A stretch of DNA of 64,000 nucleotides from NCBI GenBank assembly GCA_051891435.1, contig JBJFFE010000072.1, forward strand, positions 8,084 to 72,083. Direction: 5' to 3'. The stretch's first letter is position 1. Each line of letters opens with the position of its first letter. Below are positions 2,798-49,238 of the stretch, piece after piece. A program made the position numbers and the translations under genes. The notes below the pieces were generated by a model. That model searched no databases. It was not told the origin of the DNA and saw nothing but the letters and a program-made list of their open reading frames with translations. This stretch comes from Clostridia bacterium. GTDB lineage: Bacteria > Bacillota > Clostridia > TANB77 > CAG-508.

Positions 2798-3337
2798 TTA
2801 ATAAATCACGGCTGTTGGCACATATGTATCATCTGGAGGAGAAACTTGTGCATCTTCTGGCTCATCTACAGTAGAAATTTTTGTAATTTTAAGAATTGGA
2901 ATTTCTCCGTGATAATTTCCTTTTTCAATAGTGCCTGTAATTTCAATCCAAGTTCCATCTGCAAAATTTTTAGCATCTTTATATGAACATAAAAAACCTA
3001 CTACTAAGGTTTCATTGTAATGGCTAGTTTGCATGTCTCTTGCTAATACAAATTTATCTTCTTCAAAATCAGAGTTCCTATAAACATATCCGGTAAAGCA
3101 AATATTTTGCCCAATATAATCATCTAAATTTTCATAAACAGATTTTAAAACATTGGTATAATTGTTTGCTTCAATAACTGAAACCTCTGGAGCAGGCATT
3201 TCATCACGCACTCTAAAACTTTCTGATAAAATTTTATAAATTGAAATAATAAAGAAAATAGTAATAATAATAGCCATAATTATAAATACTATTTTAACAA
3301 TATTTTTTGAATTTAATTTAACATTACAAACAAACAT
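2798..3337 (-). CDS. membrane-anchored hypothetical protein (C-terminal domain reminiscent of DUF1980/TIGR03943-type proteins)
   Basis: One N-terminal TM helix (IVKIVFIIMAIIITIFFIISIY) followed by a soluble domain. Family similarity is weak and from memory. Confidence 0.6.
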   Translation of the reverse strand: MFVCNVKLNSKNIVKIVFIIMAIIITIFFIISIYKILSESFRVRDEMPAPEVSVIEANNYTNVLKSVYENLDDYIGQNICFTGYVYRNSDFEEDKFVLARDMQTSHYNETLVVGFLCSYKDAKNFADGTWIEITGTIEKGNYHGEIPILKITKISTVDEPEDAQVSPPDDTYVPTAVIY

Positions 3338-15346: not shown

Positions 15347-17965
15347 TTATTCTTTATATCTTTCATTAATATTTTTAATTTTTTCTCTTACATTCATAAA
15401 AACATTGACTACTTTAGGATCAAAGGCTTTTTCGCTTTGTGAAATGATATATTCTTCTGCCTCTTCATATGGCATAGCCTTTTTATATATTCTTTCATTA
15501 ACCAAAGCATCATATACATCAATTATTGACATTATTCTAGATAGAATATTTATTTCATCTCCTTTTAATCCATCTGGATATCCTGTTCCATCATATTTTT
15601 CATGATGATGTAATGTTATTTCTTTTGCATATTCTAAAACATCATCCGATAGCTTATCACTACTTGTATTCTCTAGTATTTGGCGTCCTATTATAACATG
15701 CTCTTTAATTTTATTATACTCTTCTTCTGTAAGTTTACCTGGCTTATTTAAAATATCATCCGATATACCTACTTTTCCTATATCATGTAATGTTGCTGCT
15801 ACACCTATATCTTCTATTTTTTTCTGATTTTCAAATTCTCCTGTTTGGAAAGTTCTTTCATATTCTTGTAACATTATTTTTATATATTCTTTTGTTCTCA
15901 TTAGGTGAGCACCAGTTTCTTTGCTTCTTACAGATGTAAGATTAACTAGACTATCATATAAAAATTTGTATACTTCTGAAATTTCTTCATTATATCCTTC
16001 TATTGTACTATCAATATTATACTCTTTGGTTTTTTTATTAATCATTTCTAATAATATATAACTTATATTATTAATATCATCTATTTTCTTTATATATCCA
16101 TCCATATTAGTAATTGTTATATTCTCTTGTTTATTATTAATAATATCATATTTTAAAATTAGTTGTAAAACTTCTTTAGTATTAATTAAATATCCTTCAT
16201 ATGTATTATTATCACTTTGGTCTATTATAACAGCTGTAACTTTTTTTGTTTGTAGTATAATGTCTATATCTTTAGGATTTACAGTACATATTACATTAAA
16301 ATTATTATTTAAGTTTTCAATTATTTCCCAATTTTTTATTTGATCAGCTATTACTAAGATAGTCTCTCTCTTAGTATTTTGCTGAACTACATTAGTTGTA
16401 TTTTTCATAATTTGTTTTATTATATTTTTTAGCTCTTCTGGTTTAACAGGCTTTTGTATATATGAATGTATATAATCTTTATTTTCCTCTATTACATTTT
16501 CTGTTATGTTAGTTGCTGTTAAAGCAACTATAGGTGTTTTAATATGTAAATCTTGTTTCATTATTCTAGAAATATCATAACCATTATATTTAGGCATATG
16601 TATATCCATAAGAATTAAAGAATAATAATTGTTTCCTTTTTCTTCAATCTTTTTTATTGCTTCCATCCCATCATTTGCTACATCGCACTCTATATCTATC
16701 TCTTTTAGTATCTTCGCTGTAATCTCGTTAATAGTCTTGTTATCATCAACTAACAACACCTTATTTGTTTCAGGTAGTACATTATTCTCTTTTATTAAAT
16801 CATTAGATATTTCCAATTTATCTTCTATTATATTTATATTCTTGTTATTCTTTAATAAATTTAATTCAAAGAAAAATTTACTTCCTAATCCATAGCTACT
16901 TTCTACCCAGATTTTTCCTTCCATACTTTCTATTATTTTTTTTACTAGAGGCAATCCTAGTCCAAATCCTTCTTTTTCTTTTATTGTAGGATCTGAATTT
17001 TGTTCAAATTCTTTAAAAATTTTAATAGTATCTTCTTTTTTTATTCCTGCTCCTGTGTCTTTTATACAAAACCTTAAATGATATGAATTTATATCTTCAC
17101 CAATTTTTTTAACCTGTAATTCTATATATCCTTTTTCTGTATATTTTACAGCATTGCTTATTAAATTAATAAATATTTGTTCTAATCTAGTTTTGTCTTC
17201 AAATATTTCTATATTAAGATCCATATCTGATTCTATTGACCATTGAACATTCTTTTCTTCTAATTCTTCTTTAAACATTAAATATACTTTATCTATTAAA
17301 TCTTTTAATACGAATGGTTCTTTTGTGTTTATTGAATTTGTTACTTTAGTACTTCTTGTAACATTTAAAATATTGTTCACTAATTCTGTTAGTAAGTCTG
17401 AAGCTTCTTCTAATCTATTGACATATTCAATTTGTGTTTTATCTAATTTTGTAGATTTTAGGAAATATATCATAGCAACTATAATATTTATTGGAGTTTT
17501 TATTTCATGAGATAAATTTGCTACAAATAATTCCTTATTCCTTAGTTCCTCATTTGATTGATTTAACTTTTCTTTTAAAATATTTTCATTTTTAAAATAT
17601 TTATCTGTGTCTTTAATATATATAATATATTTATTTACAGTTTGAATATAATATATTGCAATATACATAGATGTTCTTTCTTTTTTTCTCATAATTTCTA
17701 TATTATTAGAATAAAACCCCTCTTCTTTAACTATATCCATAATATCATTGTATAATTCTTTATTTTCTTCATAACCTAATAAATCAAATAAATACTCATA
17801 TTTTTTTGACATATCAGGCTTATTGATATAATCTATTTTATAGTTGCTATCTGCTATACATACAATATCTTCTATTTTGTCTATAAATCCTTCTACTACA
17901 TCTTTATTTAGTCCGCTTATAAGTAAATTTTTTTTCCTTTTGAATGGGTTTAAAAAATCAAACAT
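15347..17965 (-). CDS. cytoplasmic hybrid sensor histidine kinase - receiver - degenerate receiver - HD-GYP phosphodiesterase
   Basis: HisKA (FVANLSHEIKTPINII), HATPase_c (DTGAGI...GFGLGL), REC (VLLVDDN...LMDIHMPKYNGYD...ALTA) and C-terminal HD-GYP (AATLHDIGKVGISDDILNKPGKLT...HHHEKYDGTGYPDGLKG). No TM segment. Confidence 0.85.
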   Translation of the reverse strand: MFDFLNPFKRKKNLLISGLNKDVVEGFIDKIEDIVCIADSNYKIDYINKPDMSKKYEYLFDLLGYEENKELYNDIMDIVKEEGFYSNNIEIMRKKERTSMYIAIYYIQTVNKYIIYIKDTDKYFKNENILKEKLNQSNEELRNKELFVANLSHEIKTPINIIVAMIYFLKSTKLDKTQIEYVNRLEEASDLLTELVNNILNVTRSTKVTNSINTKEPFVLKDLIDKVYLMFKEELEEKNVQWSIESDMDLNIEIFEDKTRLEQIFINLISNAVKYTEKGYIELQVKKIGEDINSYHLRFCIKDTGAGIKKEDTIKIFKEFEQNSDPTIKEKEGFGLGLPLVKKIIESMEGKIWVESSYGLGSKFFFELNLLKNNKNINIIEDKLEISNDLIKENNVLPETNKVLLVDDNKTINEITAKILKEIDIECDVANDGMEAIKKIEEKGNNYYSLILMDIHMPKYNGYDISRIMKQDLHIKTPIVALTATNITENVIEENKDYIHSYIQKPVKPEELKNIIKQIMKNTTNVVQQNTKRETILVIADQIKNWEIIENLNNNFNVICTVNPKDIDIILQTKKVTAVIIDQSDNNTYEGYLINTKEVLQLILKYDIINNKQENITITNMDGYIKKIDDINNISYILLEMINKKTKEYNIDSTIEGYNEEISEVYKFLYDSLVNLTSVRSKETGAHLMRTKEYIKIMLQEYERTFQTGEFENQKKIEDIGVAATLHDIGKVGISDDILNKPGKLTEEEYNKIKEHVIIGRQILENTSSDKLSDDVLEYAKEITLHHHEKYDGTGYPDGLKGDEINILSRIMSIIDVYDALVNERIYKKAMPYEEAEEYIISQSEKAFDPKVVNVFMNVREKIKNINERYKE

Positions 17966-27245: not shown

Positions 27246-27367
27246 GGTTAATTCCTCCTTTTTGATTTTCCTTATCAACTTTTTCTATTATAGCACATAT
27301 AAAAAACTTTTGGTAGAGTTTTATAAATATTTTTTATATTTTCCTTTCCTTTTTTTATTACTATATT

Positions 27368-27436
27368 TTAGTGATTTTTCTTATATATAACAATTACTGC
27401 TACAACTATGATTGCTCCTACTACTAATTTTACCAT
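27368..27436 (-). CDS. unannotated 22-aa hydrophobic peptide
   Basis: GGAGGT RBS 8 nt upstream of ATG. MVKLVVGAIIVVAVIVIYKKNH. Paralogous to the adjacent peptide. Confidence 0.5.
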   Translation of the reverse strand: MVKLVVGAIIVVAVIVIYKKNH

Positions 27437-27475
27437 ATTGAATTACCTCCTTTCATATATCATGTTACGTATTAT

Positions 27476-27553
27476 TTATTTGTTTTTCATATAAATAACA
27501 ACACATATAACAGCAACAACTATAATTACACTTATTCCAAATAATTTACCCAT
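27476..27553 (-). CDS. unannotated 25-aa hydrophobic peptide
   Basis: GGAGGT RBS 7 nt upstream of ATG. MGKLFGISVIIVVAVICVVIYMKNK. Confidence 0.5.
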   Translation of the reverse strand: MGKLFGISVIIVVAVICVVIYMKNK

Positions 27554-27600
27554 AATCTTTTACCTCCTATAATTTAGTCATTTGCTCTTTTGATGTTGTT

Positions 27601-27665
27601 ATTATAGCTTGGCAAAGTAAAATTAAGGTTAAATTAAAGTAAAAAAATGGTAAAGTTAAGGTAAA
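27601..27665 (-). promoter_or_regulatory. -10 element preceded by five direct pentamer repeats phased at 11 bp
   Basis: Plus-strand GTAAA/GTTAA at 27617, 27628, 27639, 27650 and 27661 (minus strand TTTAC C/T, TTAACC). TATAAT on the minus strand at 27606-27601, with no good -35. Confidence 0.55.
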
Positions 27666-27676
27666 ATTTTAATATT

Positions 27677-27715
27677 AAAAAAATCATTCTATAAAATATA
27701 TAGAATGATTTTTTA
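27677..27715. terminator. bidirectional hairpin terminator 3' of the ZIP transporter gene
   Basis: AAAAAATCATTCTATA...TATAGAATGATTTTTT, a perfect long inverted repeat flanked by A/T runs. Confidence 0.75.
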
Positions 27716-27732
27716 TTGTTATTTAAAGCAAT

Positions 27733-28509
27733 TTATCCCAAAGTTACGTCTAATATCATCATAATAACAAAGCCAATGGCAACTCCTATTGTTCCAATAT
27801 TTGAGTGTTCTCCTACTTGTGATTCTGGTATCAATTCTTCCACTACAACGTATATCATTGCCCCCGCTGCAAACGATAACAGGTATGGAAGAATTGGAAC
27901 CACTGCCTCTGTAAGTAATATTGTAATTATTGCAGCAATTGGTTCAACTATTCCAGATATAGCGCCATATAAGAAAGCCCTGGGCTTTGATACTCCTTCA
28001 TTTTTTAGTGGCATTGATATAATTGCCCCTTCTGGGAAGTTTTGAATTGCAATACCGATTGCTAAAGCCAACGCTCCTGCCATTGTAATTCCTGTATTCC
28101 CTAAAATAGCACCTGCGAAAGTCACTCCAACTGCCATTCCTTCTGGTATATTATGAAGTGTTACAGCAAATACCATCATTGTTGTTTTCTTTAATTTTGA
28201 TTTAATTCCATCTGGTTTGTCACTTTCTAAGTGCATATGAGGTATTACACTATCTAATATAAGTAAAAATGTTATTCCAAGTAGAAAACCAAGGGCAGCA
28301 GGAAGCCACCCTATTTTTCCCTGCCCTTCTGCCATTTCAATTGATGGTATAAGAAGAGACCATATAGATGCTGCTATCATTACACCTGATGCAAATCCTA
28401 AAAGTATTTTTTCTACTTTTTTATCCATTTCTTTTTTCATTAGAAATACCATTCCAGCCCCCAACACTGTTCCTATAAATGGTATTAATAATCCAATAAA
28501 AATTTTCAT
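27733..28509 (-). CDS. ZIP family metal (zinc) transporter
   Basis: Eight-TM protein with the ZupT-type HNIPEGMAVG and QNFPEG motifs. Confidence 0.88.
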   Translation of the reverse strand: MKIFIGLLIPFIGTVLGAGMVFLMKKEMDKKVEKILLGFASGVMIAASIWSLLIPSIEMAEGQGKIGWLPAALGFLLGITFLLILDSVIPHMHLESDKPDGIKSKLKKTTMMVFAVTLHNIPEGMAVGVTFAGAILGNTGITMAGALALAIGIAIQNFPEGAIISMPLKNEGVSKPRAFLYGAISGIVEPIAAIITILLTEAVVPILPYLLSFAAGAMIYVVVEELIPESQVGEHSNIGTIGVAIGFVIMMILDVTLG

Positions 28510-28532
28510 ATCAAATCACTTTCTTTTTATTA

Positions 28533-29963
28533 TTATATGTGTTTTATGTTTGTATATTTAGAAATATCATTATTTGTAGTAACTATATCATAATTACTTA
28601 AACTATGTATATCATAATTTCCTGTTATTCTTGCAAATGTTTTAAGTTCATCATTTACTACATTAAAATAATTTTCTAATCTTTTGCTACTTTCTTCTAT
28701 ATGAAATCTTTTTCTCAATTCAGGATCTTGTGTTCCAATTCCAACTGGACATTTTCCTGAATTACAAGACCTATATTGTTGACACCCTATTGCAATCATA
28801 GCAGCAGTTGCAATTGCAACTGCATCAGCTCCCATAGCAATTGCTTTTGCAAAATCTCCAGATGTTCTAAGTCCTCCTGTAATAATTAATGAAATATCTT
28901 CATTGTGCTCATCTAAATATTTTCTAGCTCTATATAATGCGTAGATTGTTGGTACTGTAGTAGTATCTTTTATAATTTTAGGGCTTGCTCCTGTTGCTCC
29001 GCCTCTACCATCTATTGTAATAAAATCAGGTTTTGCATAACATGCAAAGTCTAAATCTTCTTCTATATGTCCTGCTGCAATTTTTATACCAATTGGTCTT
29101 CCTTCTGATTTTGTTCTTAATTCTGAAACTAAGTATTTTAAATCTTCTCTGGTTTTAATTTCTTCAAATTTAGATGGACTAATTACATCTTCATGTACAT
29201 TTTTACCTCTTATTTTTGCAATTTCTTCTGTTACTTTTTCTCCTGGAAGGTGTCCCCCCATTCCTGGTTTTGTTCCTTGACCAATTTTTATTTCAATCGC
29301 ACTTACTTTCTTTAAGTTTTTATCATTTACACTATATTTATTAGGAACATATTCAAAAATATATTGATATGAGTTTTCGAATTCTTCTGGTAGTATTCCA
29401 CCTTCTCCACTACATATAGCAGTTTTTACTCTACTTGTTCCTATTGCTAATGCTGTTTTGGCTTCTTTTGATAGAGCACCAAAAGACATGTGCGATACAA
29501 AAACAGGAGATTCTAATACCATAGGTTTTTTTGCATTTTTTCCTATAATTGTTCTTAAACTTACTTCTTCATCATCAAAAAGAGGCATCTTATTTAGTTG
29601 TCCTCCAAGTATTAAAATATCATTCCAACTAACTACTGGTAATTTTGTCCCCATTGCTGATATAATACTTCTTCCCTCTATTGCCATAGTATGGATATCT
29701 GACATGTTTTTTTCTTTTTCATCAGAATCACGCTTATATTCTTTTAGGTAGCTTTTTAATTTATTCTCCTTATGTTCTCCTTGGTTTGTTTCTTCTTTTT
29801 TGTTTTCTGTATTGTTATTTTCTTCTACTAATTTAAACATATTCTTTGGTGCAAAACACATTGGGCAGGTCCAATCATCTGGTAAATCTTCGAATTTAAC
29901 TCCCTCTTTTTCCTCATCATAAATATGCCCACATAATTGACATTTATACTTTGCCATATTCAT
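28533..29963 (-). CDS. rubredoxin domain fused to FMN-binding glutamate-synthase-like (GltB domain 2) protein
   Basis: N-terminal [10 protein letters not shown]...[10 protein letters not shown] (rubredoxin). C-terminal GEGG...[16 protein letters not shown]...[11 protein letters not shown] (GltS FMN domain). Confidence 0.85.
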
Positions 29964-29972
29964 TCCTCCTTA

Positions 29973-34428: not shown

Positions 34429-34888
34429 CTTCTTCTATATAATCTATAGGCTTTCCACTTAATAAATTTTCTCTCATTCTATACATAACTGTTCCTGATA
34501 AATATTCAAGATCTCCTTGGCAAATTCCATCAAAAGATCTTTTCATAAACTCTATTAGCTCATCATCTGTAATTAAGTCCATTGTTTCATTTTTGTATTC
34601 ATAAAACATCTCTATCAATTCATATAAGGTTTCAGCATAGTTTTCTTGGTTTATATATGGTGAATCACCAAATTCTTTTATTAACTTATCTATTATTCCT
34701 TCCCTAAATTCAATTCTACCTGTTTCTTTTAAAGTATCTTTTCTTCTTTCTAATAAATTATTTATTTGATCATCTGATAATATTAATCCATATTGGGTTG
34801 TATATTCATTACATTTCTTTATATTAGCAATTTCAATTTGTTTTCTTTTATTTACTATTTCTAAATAAGACTCTTCCATTTTCAACAC
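34412..34888 (-). CDS. hypothetical protein (158 aa, acidic)
   Basis: Intact ORF with GAGGTG RBS, overlapping the downstream partner. Confidence 0.6.
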   Translation of the reverse strand: MLKMEESYLEIVNKRKQIEIANIKKCNEYTTQYGLILSDDQINNLLERRKDTLKETGRIEFREGIIDKLIKEFGDSPYINQENYAETLYELIEMFYEYKNETMDLITDDELIEFMKRSFDGICQGDLEYLSGTVMYRMRENLLSGKPIDYIEEGEDYE

Positions 34889-48254: not shown

Positions 48255-49091
48255 TTAAATTCCCTCTTTCATTTTTTCAAATTCATTTTTTAATTTTATA
48301 TATTCGTTTAAGTCATCATCAAAATAATAACATTTTAATACTTTATGTACTTCTTCTACATGCCATTGTTTGTAATTTTCTGTATGTGGATATGGTAAAA
48401 ACATAAGTCTTTTACAAAAATGACAAATTATGGTGTCTTTTTTATTAAATTTTGACTGTTCATTAAAAATTCTAGGAAGTATTTTTTTCTTTGTTGTAGA
48501 CCAGAAAATTGCATCTTGGTCTGCAAATAACATTTTTTTAGTTTTTATTAGTGTTCTTGCTTTTTCTAAAAGTTTTGTTTCTTTTATTTTATTCATATTA
48601 AGTAAAAGCATACCAGCATTTATATAGTCTGGTCTTATAATCCAACAACCATACTTTTCTTTTACTGCTGCATATTCATAATCAGTCACATCAATATTAT
48701 ATAATTTTGAAAGATCTCCTCCCACCATTATGTCTATATCTAAGTATAGTAGCTTGTTTGGAATCTCTGGTATTAAGTCTGCTAATAATCTAAGTAAGGT
48801 ATACGGTGTGCAATATGCATTTTCATTAGCACAATTCATAAATTCTTGCTCATATAAGTTTGTTACATCAACTTTAGTTACTTGATTCTCTGAGTTTTTT
48901 GACTTAACAATTTTATTTAAAAAATCAATTTGTTCATCGCGAATAGCTGTATATTCTGGTTTTAATCTTGTCAAATTCATAGTAAAAATGTAACAATTAA
49001 TTGGTTCTTTTGTTCTATTTGTTATAGATATAAGCTGCGTTAATGCTCCGTCAAAAACCTTCTCATTTCCACATAATAATAAATTTATCAT
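48255..49091 (-). CDS. glycosyltransferase family 8
   Basis: DxD (LYLDIDIMV), INAGMLLLNM. Directly abuts the second GT8 gene. Confidence 0.8.
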   Translation of the reverse strand: MINLLLCGNEKVFDGALTQLISITNRTKEPINCYIFTMNLTRLKPEYTAIRDEQIDFLNKIVKSKNSENQVTKVDVTNLYEQEFMNCANENAYCTPYTLLRLLADLIPEIPNKLLYLDIDIMVGGDLSKLYNIDVTDYEYAAVKEKYGCWIIRPDYINAGMLLLNMNKIKETKLLEKARTLIKTKKMLFADQDAIFWSTTKKKILPRIFNEQSKFNKKDTIICHFCKRLMFLPYPHTENYKQWHVEEVHKVLKCYYFDDDLNEYIKLKNEFEKMKEGI

Positions 49092-49238
49092 ATTTTTACT
49101 TCCTATTATTTTACTTTTTTTAAGTTTGCTTAGATATTTTATCGTAAAATATAAAATTTTGCAAGTAGTTTATGAATATTATGGAAAAGTAACATTTTTT
49201 CCTTAATTTAATATGATAATATTAGAACTATAGAAAGG

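Follow-up and report, generated by a model that had tools for sequence, protein, structure and literature searches.

A five-unit direct-repeat array with the build of an OmpR/PhoB-type operator upstream of two micro-peptide genes in a Clostridia genome

Our analysis points to a tandem operator of an OmpR/PhoB-family response regulator (RR) upstream of two unannotated micro-peptide genes in a Clostridia genome. Five direct repeats at 11-bp phase stand in place of the -35 element of a minus-strand promoter. Arrays of this type are linked elsewhere to a two-component system, and the promoter and the operon behind it are homologous to one operon of a metagenomic cluster that includes its own RR and histidine kinase (HK) genes. 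On sequence evidence, we put the probability that the array is an operator of this kind, at a class II activated promoter, at about 75%.

Results

Five phased half-sites replace the -35 element of a micro-peptide promoter

The window, by which we mean the whole 64,000-nucleotide stretch analysed here, belongs to a 1.31-Mb MAG (28% G+C, ~92% complete) labelled G000 in our comparisons. The minus-strand gene order around the array is zupT, hairpin, array, TATAAT, leader, pep1, pep2 and yebC, with the following features:

28509..27733, minus strand: zupT
27678..27714, no strand assigned: perfect 16-bp inverted repeat, 100% complementary, with a 5-nt loop and A-run and T-run flanks
27616..27668, minus strand: array of five 11-bp units, TTTTACCTTAA CTTTACCATTT TTTTACTTTAA TTTAACCTTAA TTTTACTTTGC
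27665..27661, 27654..27650, 27643..27639, 27632..27628 and 27621..27617, minus strand: half-sites TTTAC/TTAAC
27601..27606, minus strand: -10 hexamer TATAAT, 10 nt past the last pentamer, without a -35 and without a TG extension
27554..27600, minus strand: predicted 5' leader of 47 nt, with Shine-Dalgarno AGGAGG at 27568..27563; its first bases are AACAACAT
27476..27553, minus strand: pep1, 25 aa, MGKLFGISVIIVVAVICVVIYMKNK, a single-helix hydrophobic peptide
27368..27436, minus strand: pep2, 22 aa, MVKLVVGAIIVVAVIVIYKKNH, with its own GGAGG at 27450..27446
27287..27295, minus strand: yebC's own extended -10, TGCTATAAT

On the plus strand, the pentamers GTAAA, GTTAA, GTAAA, GTAAA and GTAAA begin at 27617, 27628, 27639, 27650 and 27661 (27617-27665 reads GTAAAattaagGTTAAattaaaGTAAAaaaatgGTAAAgttaagGTAAA), and the gene strand carries the hexamers TTTACC, TTTACC, TTTACT, TTAACC and TTTACT. 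A first-pass annotation of this DNA had listed these pentamers and hexamers, and all of its coordinates proved correct on re-reading. It had also described a TATAAT at 27606-27601 that lacks a -35, which we confirm: the hexamers 16-18 nt upstream (ACCTTA, CCTTAA and AACCTT) are not -35-like. Between the fifth array unit and TATAAT, the minus strand reads CAAGC. Tandem Repeats Finder reports the array at period 11, with 4.7 copies, 70% matches and the consensus GTAAAATTAAG.

Class II operators consist of 5-7-bp half-sites in direct repeat at a 10-11 bp period; the proximal half-site overlaps the -35 or stands in for it, and a recognisable -10 follows after a short, constant interval. The window array has five TTWAC half-sites at 11 bp, and both promoter features are present. 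The sixth base of the half-site is C or T in all five units and A in none; the bases preceding GTWAA are A, G, A, G and G, never T, and T never follows GTAAA either.

Upstream, the inverted repeat is a predicted terminator that would end zupT transcription and shield the array promoter from it. Downstream, pep1 and pep2 are paralogous, with direct repeats (D3-D5) between the two genes that are 72-78% identical. Neither peptide could be placed in Pfam or NCBIfam (a YldA-like entry came closest, at E = 0.18), a protein search with a 43-aa miscalled ORF returned only itself, and we found nothing related in the viral collection. The fold of the leader is not unusual (z = -1.3), and no relevant Rfam match was found in the leader and intergenic region.

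The array is unique in its genome

GTWAA occurs in the assembly at a frequency of 0.00354 per position, and the numbers of arrays expected by chance in its 1.31 Mb are 0.12 with three phased copies and 1.5e-6 with five. The window array is the sole site in the assembly with at least three phased copies, and relaxed scans of this genome revealed no second promoter of the same build. Among 401 genomes of the family, 117 have a site with three phased copies, a rate not above that of a reversed-pattern control. Since three-copy arrays occur at chance level, the significance of the array rests on its five copies, the fixed distance to the -10, and conservation elsewhere.

Three-repeat matches from the family scan in G121, G181, G009, G214, G285, G001 and G333:C26 were set aside, most matches of this kind being unrelated. 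We also rejected three TTTACT-N5-TTAACA sites in G000 as regulator sites, as they are copies of a repeated intergenic element. This element is ~90 nt long and present in at least four copies in G000 (C69:~34430-34510, C30:~2960-3040, C16:~1930-2010 and C16:~49060-49150), with the sequence …gaggcgggggaagaccYgcgtacgccttggagaatttaattttttagaaaatcatacaaaaggtaggctgac…, and looks like a MITE or REP element.

The peptide cassette is variable within the genus

Six congeners have a YebC with 89-99% identity. The peptide cassette and its array are missing from all six, where only yebC's own promoter is common upstream of yebC. One congener (G004) also has zupT upstream of yebC, yet without peptides there. 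Searching for the intergenic DNA in 40 relatives returned low-complexity matches only, and the DNA signature of the peptide C-termini was not found in the congeners or in two other array-bearing genomes, G333 and G337. Because the cassette is absent from all six congeners, it is accessory DNA.

In a comparison with the congener loci L022-L027, the yebC promoter (window 27287-27330; …actacNcaaa…N…TGNTAWAAT) is kept genus-wide while everything upstream of it differs. The segment from a 43-aa DUF6019-like gene to yebC (window 27246-29970, compared with L022 and L024-L027) is variable within the genus and contains a rubredoxin-GltS-like gene, zupT and the peptide cassette. G006 lacks the segment altogether; in the remaining congeners, yebC is preceded by unrelated genes.

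The same promoter build recurs in other genomes

A scan of the 401 family genomes for two repeats plus a -10 identified true arrays only in G000, G333 (CALXBX010000025.1, uncultured Clostridia bacterium, 97% complete) and G337 (JAZRRK010000015.1); the three-repeat scan of the same genomes exposed one array in G333 and two, a and b, in G337. A fourth array-bearing genome, the MAG L090, labelled Mycoplasma, came from a scan of species genomes. Finally, a metagenome scan with the pattern of four repeats, 10 nt and TANNNT yielded L138, whose longer twin L237 (ENA ERZ27245261 k141_338920, 144 kb) was retrieved by protein identity. In all, ten promoters in five genomes (G000, G333, G337 a and b, L090, and L237 arrays 1-5) have 3-6 phased TTTAC(C/T/G) half-sites followed by 10 nt and a -10-like hexamer. 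The first-pass annotation would take absence of the motif from other promoters as a refutation; the motif is indeed absent from other promoters inside this genome, where the array is a singleton, but not across genomes.

The window, G333 and G337b have the 22-mer TTTAACCTTAATTTTACTTT in common, with one mismatch in G337b. Downstream of the G333 and G337b arrays lie genes for a 103-105-aa charged helical protein and a 132-aa membrane protein, and the L090 array is followed by a 104-aa homologue of the charged helical protein. The second G337 array (a) precedes genes for a 217-aa membrane protein and a 446-aa protein. No Pfam family was found for the 103-aa, 132-aa, 217-aa or 446-aa array-driven proteins.

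A matrix of 43 units from the ten promoters reads xTTTAC(C16/T21/G5/A1)tTaA, with the pentamer columns partly circular because the pentamer was the search criterion. Three features are not circular: A is nearly absent after TTTAC; T stands two positions further on in 37 of the 43 units; and the -10 distance is identical throughout, including L237 arrays 1 and 5, which were found without a -10 constraint. The base after TTTAC sets these sites apart from TTTACA arrays upstream of PstS-type genes.

The first ORF after arrays matched in metagenomes often encodes an RR, an HK, a PstS-type binding protein, a PstC-like/ABC permease or an HlyD-family adaptor, and among the species genomes, a Na/Pi cotransporter and a PstS-like protein are among the products of the first ORFs that follow them. 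The metagenome scan also yields plain tandem satellites with perfect 11-mers, so the pattern alone is no proof of an operator.

In many genera of the same family, four TTAACT/TTTACT repeats come directly after an OmpR-type RR gene, and a -10 that obeys the 10-nt rule and an ABC transporter come next. At L029, L035 and L051-L056, the RR gene ends in ...WGIGYKL, and the four repeats before the -10 are spaced 11, 11 and 12 bp. The L029-type module continues with a 304-aa ABC ATPase and a permease and is not found in G000; it resembles a resistance unit of the lantibiotic or bacitracin type together with its operator. The promoter of the G000 ABC operon that lies upstream of RR2-HK2 reads TCACT-N6-TCACT-N10-TATAAT (C16:45470-45500), which is the class II geometry of the window array with another half-site.

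A five-array cluster encodes a two-component system

Array b of G337 precedes the closely spaced, co-oriented genes p105-p132-p180-RR(226 aa)-HK(344 aa), the RR being of the OmpR family. In L237, five arrays lie on one strand within 5 kb:

Array 1, 4 repeats: p102, p130
Array 2, 4 repeats: a 19-aa peptide and a CDP-alcohol phosphatidyltransferase (PF01066; PgsA-like)
Array 3, 6 repeats: p417, p76
Array 4, 6 repeats: p46 and two copies of the 26-aa peptide MVAKIVIGVIIAIVVIAAIVIYKKNH
Array 5, 3-4 repeats: p172, an RR (223 aa, PF00072+PF00486) and an HK (353 aa)

An HlyIII-family gene separates the array-4 and array-5 operons, and an HTH_17 excisionase-like gene and a phage-type integrase gene lie downstream of the cluster. 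Identity between L237 and G337 is 57% for the RRs, 43% for the HKs and 35% for p172/p180; these genes form one orthologous module, and in both genomes its operon has an array before it. Both kinases are short, with two N-terminal hydrophobic segments ~ten residues apart (judged by eye), which is reminiscent of the intramembrane-sensing type. The RR-HK pair of the five-promoter cluster points to a membrane or envelope-stress response, and its signal would be a stress of this kind.

The p417 protein is ~31% identical to proteins annotated as alcohol acetyltransferase. On an Anaerotruncus plasmid, a p417 homologue adjoins a hydrolase gene and a diacylglycerol-kinase-family gene, and the plasmid homologues stand in a lipid-metabolism context without a two-component system. 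With the five-array cluster inside it and the excisionase-like and phage-type integrase genes at its boundary, L237:9586-19922 is probably an integrative element with a membrane-stress regulon.

The window cassette is homologous to the array-4 operon of L237

In a pairwise DNA alignment, the five window pentamers line up without any shift with the promoter-proximal five of L237 array 4, and the two promoters contain the identical 19-mer ATTTTACCTTAACTTTACC. The spacers differ (ATTTTT/CAAGC, TTAAT/CTTAAA and CTTAAT/GATAAG), and the leader start AACAACAT is common to both operons. The pep2 gene is conserved in the array-4 operon and homologous to the duplicated 26-aa MVAKIVIGVIIAIVVIAAIVIYKKNH of L138/L237, whose two copies in L237 are paralogous, as are pep1 and pep2. 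The terminator hairpin that follows the peptide genes in L237 is degraded in G000.

We define the array regulon of the p10x-p13x...RR-HK cluster by 3-6 xTTTAC(C/T/G)tTaA units that keep register with a -10 and precede genes for small membrane proteins, together with DNA or protein homology to members of the cluster. By this definition, the window cassette is a member of the regulon.

These observations suggest how the promoter would work. At the window array, successive TTTAC(C/T) half-sites, five in all, are separated by one helical turn, with the proximal one 10 nt upstream of the -10 and replacing the -35. Phosphorylated regulator dimers would bind head-to-tail on the half-sites and recruit RNA polymerase, which would start transcription downstream of the -10 and turn on the operon that encodes the two hydrophobic peptides, of 25 and 22 aa. 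The array would belong to an uncharacterised regulon that elsewhere forms a compact cluster, flanked in L237 by excisionase-like and integrase genes. Under the control of its 3-6-unit arrays would be genes for small membrane proteins and peptides, for a PgsA-like phosphatidyltransferase and for an acetyltransferase-like protein, as well as the cluster's own operon, whose last genes encode the RR and a short histidine kinase with two transmembrane helices. Here, the peptide cassette and operator stand alone, with the cognate kinase and regulator genes absent from the assembly.

The window array is a candidate orphan operator

A cognate winged-helix RR is encoded with the regulon in G337 and L237, and neither G000 nor G333 has an orthologue of it. 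In G333 (97% complete), the array operon is present without the cluster-type RR, so the cluster's RR is a candidate binder. The G000 assembly contains only three OmpR-family regulators: RR1 (C37) is YycF/WalR-like, scoring 328.6 bits against the YycF model (cut-off 340), and RR2 and RR3 each follow an ABC transporter. The best identities of these regulators to the cluster RR are 34-35%, with no orthologue among them, and the same assembly has no orthologue of the cluster HK and no homologue of p102, p130, p417, p222 or p172. Because G000 lacks an orthologue of the cognate two-component system, the window array would be an orphan operator, whether a relic, cross-wired, or served by an unbinned island.

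The only kinase on the window contig is an 872-aa hybrid (window 15347-17965, minus strand) with a histidine kinase, receiver(s) and an HD-GYP-like C-terminus (HD-GYP assigned by eye), and it has no DNA-binding partner close by.

We consider it possible, at well below even odds, that the array is a fossil. The cassette would then have been acquired from, or left behind by, the cluster, with no regulator in this organism recognising it and the peptides made at the basal level of a -35-less promoter or not at all. The missing RR and HK orthologues and the five missing cluster proteins fit this account, as do the absence of the cassette from all six congeners and the degraded terminator hairpin. 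However, nothing is damaged in the five half-sites, the -10, the two Shine-Dalgarno sequences or the two reading frames. In addition, the MAG is ~92% complete and elements of this kind often go unbinned, so the organism itself may possess the two-component system.

It is rather improbable that a resident regulator, either RR1 or RR3 (C16), cross-recognises the GTAAA core. RR1 is the only OmpR-type regulator common to G000, G333 and G337 (the RR1-type proteins G333_C55 and G337_C3 are 73% identical), and its 328.6-bit score against the YycF model also counts in favour. WalR-type sites read TGTWAH-N5-TGTWAH, and they have a GTAA core in common with the array; the recognition helix of RR3, NLEAYLSFIRKKL, is similar to that of CiaR, VVEVYVSKVRKKL. 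Against this, the organism's own enriched motif is TGTAAT-N5-TGTAAT, which we observed 17 times versus 1.8 expected, and with N5 only. Triple TGTAAT sites number four versus 0.0015 expected, and one of them lies upstream of RR1. The TGTAAT motif and the array disagree in the base on either side of the core: with no T before or after GTAAA, the array does not read as a WalR/YycF site. Pairs of GGTAAA or AGTAAA are enriched nowhere, and the RR3 frame breaks ahead of the wing.

The TGTAAT-N5-TGTAAT sites are probably the WalR-type regulon of this organism. Examples of TGTAAT/TGTAAC-N5-TGTAAT sites are C37:38093, C30:22328-22371, C51:13192-13203, C61:10718-10729 and C71:11567-11595. The RR3 frame (C16:59540-59640) breaks before the C-terminal wing, and ...AVRGLGYKLEV resumes in another frame; the WalK-like kinase beside RR1 (C37:35815-36100) is also split over two frames. 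These breaks may be assembly errors or pseudogenes.

DNA curvature, a phosphate response and a plus-strand RNA explain the array poorly

Phased A-tracts upstream of clostridial promoters stimulate transcription, and the AT-rich array holds AAAATT, AAATT and A7 tracts ~11 bp apart. The array could act by intrinsic curvature, as a UP-like element that boosts a -35-less promoter without a specific protein. However, homologous arrays keep the pentamer with its invariant C, not the spacers, and some L237 spacers are G+C-rich (CCAAGC, CCAGTC, GATAAG) and interrupt the A-tracts. The arrays also co-occur with a dedicated two-component system. Curvature alone is an unlikely explanation of the promoter, and we give it little chance, although bending of the AT-rich DNA with its phased A-tracts may contribute.

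Harder still to sustain is a Pho box, that is, a PhoP/PhoB-dependent promoter induced by phosphate limitation. The 11-bp phasing, missing -35 and TTWAC core do resemble Pho-type arrays, and arrays of the same geometry stand upstream of a Na/Pi cotransporter gene (L065) and PstS-type genes (L084, L152). Yet most Pho-linked arrays (L152, L131) are built of TTTACA, whereas the sixth base is C or T in 5/5 units here and A in one of the 43 homologous units. We found no PhoU and no PstS or Na/Pi homologue in G000, and none of its RRs reaches the PhoB score cut-off. A Pho promoter is recognised by a Pho regulator together with phosphate-acquisition genes that have the box upstream, but the genes downstream of the window array encode the two peptides, and the products under array control, in the window and in the homologous clusters alike, are membrane peptides and enzymes of lipid metabolism rather than phosphate functions. 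Of the first-pass proposal, then, the general call of an OmpR/PhoB-family activator array is supported by the ten promoters in five genomes and the RR-HK operon in two of them. Its specifics, a PhoP-like regulator and induction by phosphate limitation, find no support: the sixth base is never A here, and neither the phosphate genes nor an RR above the PhoB cut-off were found.

We can hardly credit a plus-strand RNA of ~140 nt, antisense to the peptide leader, running from TTTACC-17-TATAAT (27545-27573, plus strand) through five GUAAA repeats to the 27678-27714 hairpin: the promoter scan gives 10/12 matches and the hairpin has T-runs on both sides, but the start codon and Shine-Dalgarno of pep1 on the opposite strand dictate the hexamers, promoter-like matches are near chance in such AT-rich DNA (9 found, 5.3 expected), the homologous L237 operon has no equivalent promoter, no Rfam match was found, and the TTTACC-17-TATAAT is probably a chance match.

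Discussion

The array supplies a regulatory context for two unannotated micro-peptide genes and ties them to a previously undescribed two-component regulon. We tentatively propose, as a minority possibility, that this regulon is a mobile membrane-stress module of small-genome gut Clostridia, in which a short HK and an OmpR-type RR would serve up to five adjacent promoters. Each promoter would carry 3-6 phased TTTAC(C/T) half-sites, and the output would be unannotated hydrophobic peptides of 19-26 aa and lipid-modifying enzymes. In the window, the peptide cassette and its operator would have been separated from the module, and the separated cassette may have been re-wired to a resident regulator.

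Our knowledge of how OmpR-family regulators work is unchanged by this array. Its operator code (TTTAC(C/T) at 11-bp phase, with 10 nt before the -10) allows metagenomes to be searched for more members. The array also offers a clean case of an orphan operator, a target promoter without a regulator, in which regulon break-up, cross-wiring and MAG incompleteness are testable. We judge its interest to be moderate, residing in the micro-peptides, the compact integrase-flanked multi-operator cluster, and the array's orphan status here.

Several known systems resemble parts of this build. In enterobacteria, PhoP activates genes for the small membrane peptides MgrB, MgtS and PmrR, and MgrB acts back on PhoQ. 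As in that system, tiny single-helix membrane peptides are made here from what appear to be RR-dependent promoters; the two sets of peptides have no sequence relation. By analogy with MgrB and PhoQ, the window peptides might act back on a membrane kinase, a feedback that is conjecture only. The PhoP boxes of Bacillus subtilis consist of TT(A/T/C)ACA every 11 bp and are like the window array in their multiple 11-bp direct repeats, their TTWAC core and activation without a -35, which we infer here. Unlike those boxes, the array does not have A as its sixth base, no Pho genes or PhoPR were found in this genome, and the targets are unrelated to phosphate.

The box of the Escherichia coli envelope-stress regulator CpxR, GTAAA(N)4-8GTAAA (PMC9603713), has a half-site identical to ours, with our N6 inside the published range and an envelope or membrane theme in both. 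CpxR is a proteobacterial regulator, an orthologue of which is not expected here, and the likeness is one of sequence only. The SaeR site of Staphylococcus aureus, GTTAAN6GTTAA (PMC5083920), has the pentamer-N6 spacing seen on the plus strand of the window, where one of the five units is exactly GTTAA. Unlike in SaeR sites, four of the five units are GTAAA, and our array extends further; there is no relation in organism or in target genes.

The streptococcal CiaR promoters differ from the window promoter in half-site (TTTAAG rather than TTTAC(C/T)), in number of units (two rather than five) and, once the hexamers are aligned, by 1 nt in distance, and no CiaRH orthologue was identified here. 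They are nonetheless similar in layout: the promoter search for CiaR used TTTAAG-N5-TTTAAG at 10 nt from the -10 (PMC3091779), and in both cases direct hexamers at 11-bp phase replace the -35, ~10 nt from a TATAAT (PMC3091779). The products in both are very small (csRNAs there, tiny peptides here), and the regulator, CiaR there and a predicted one here, is of the OmpR family.
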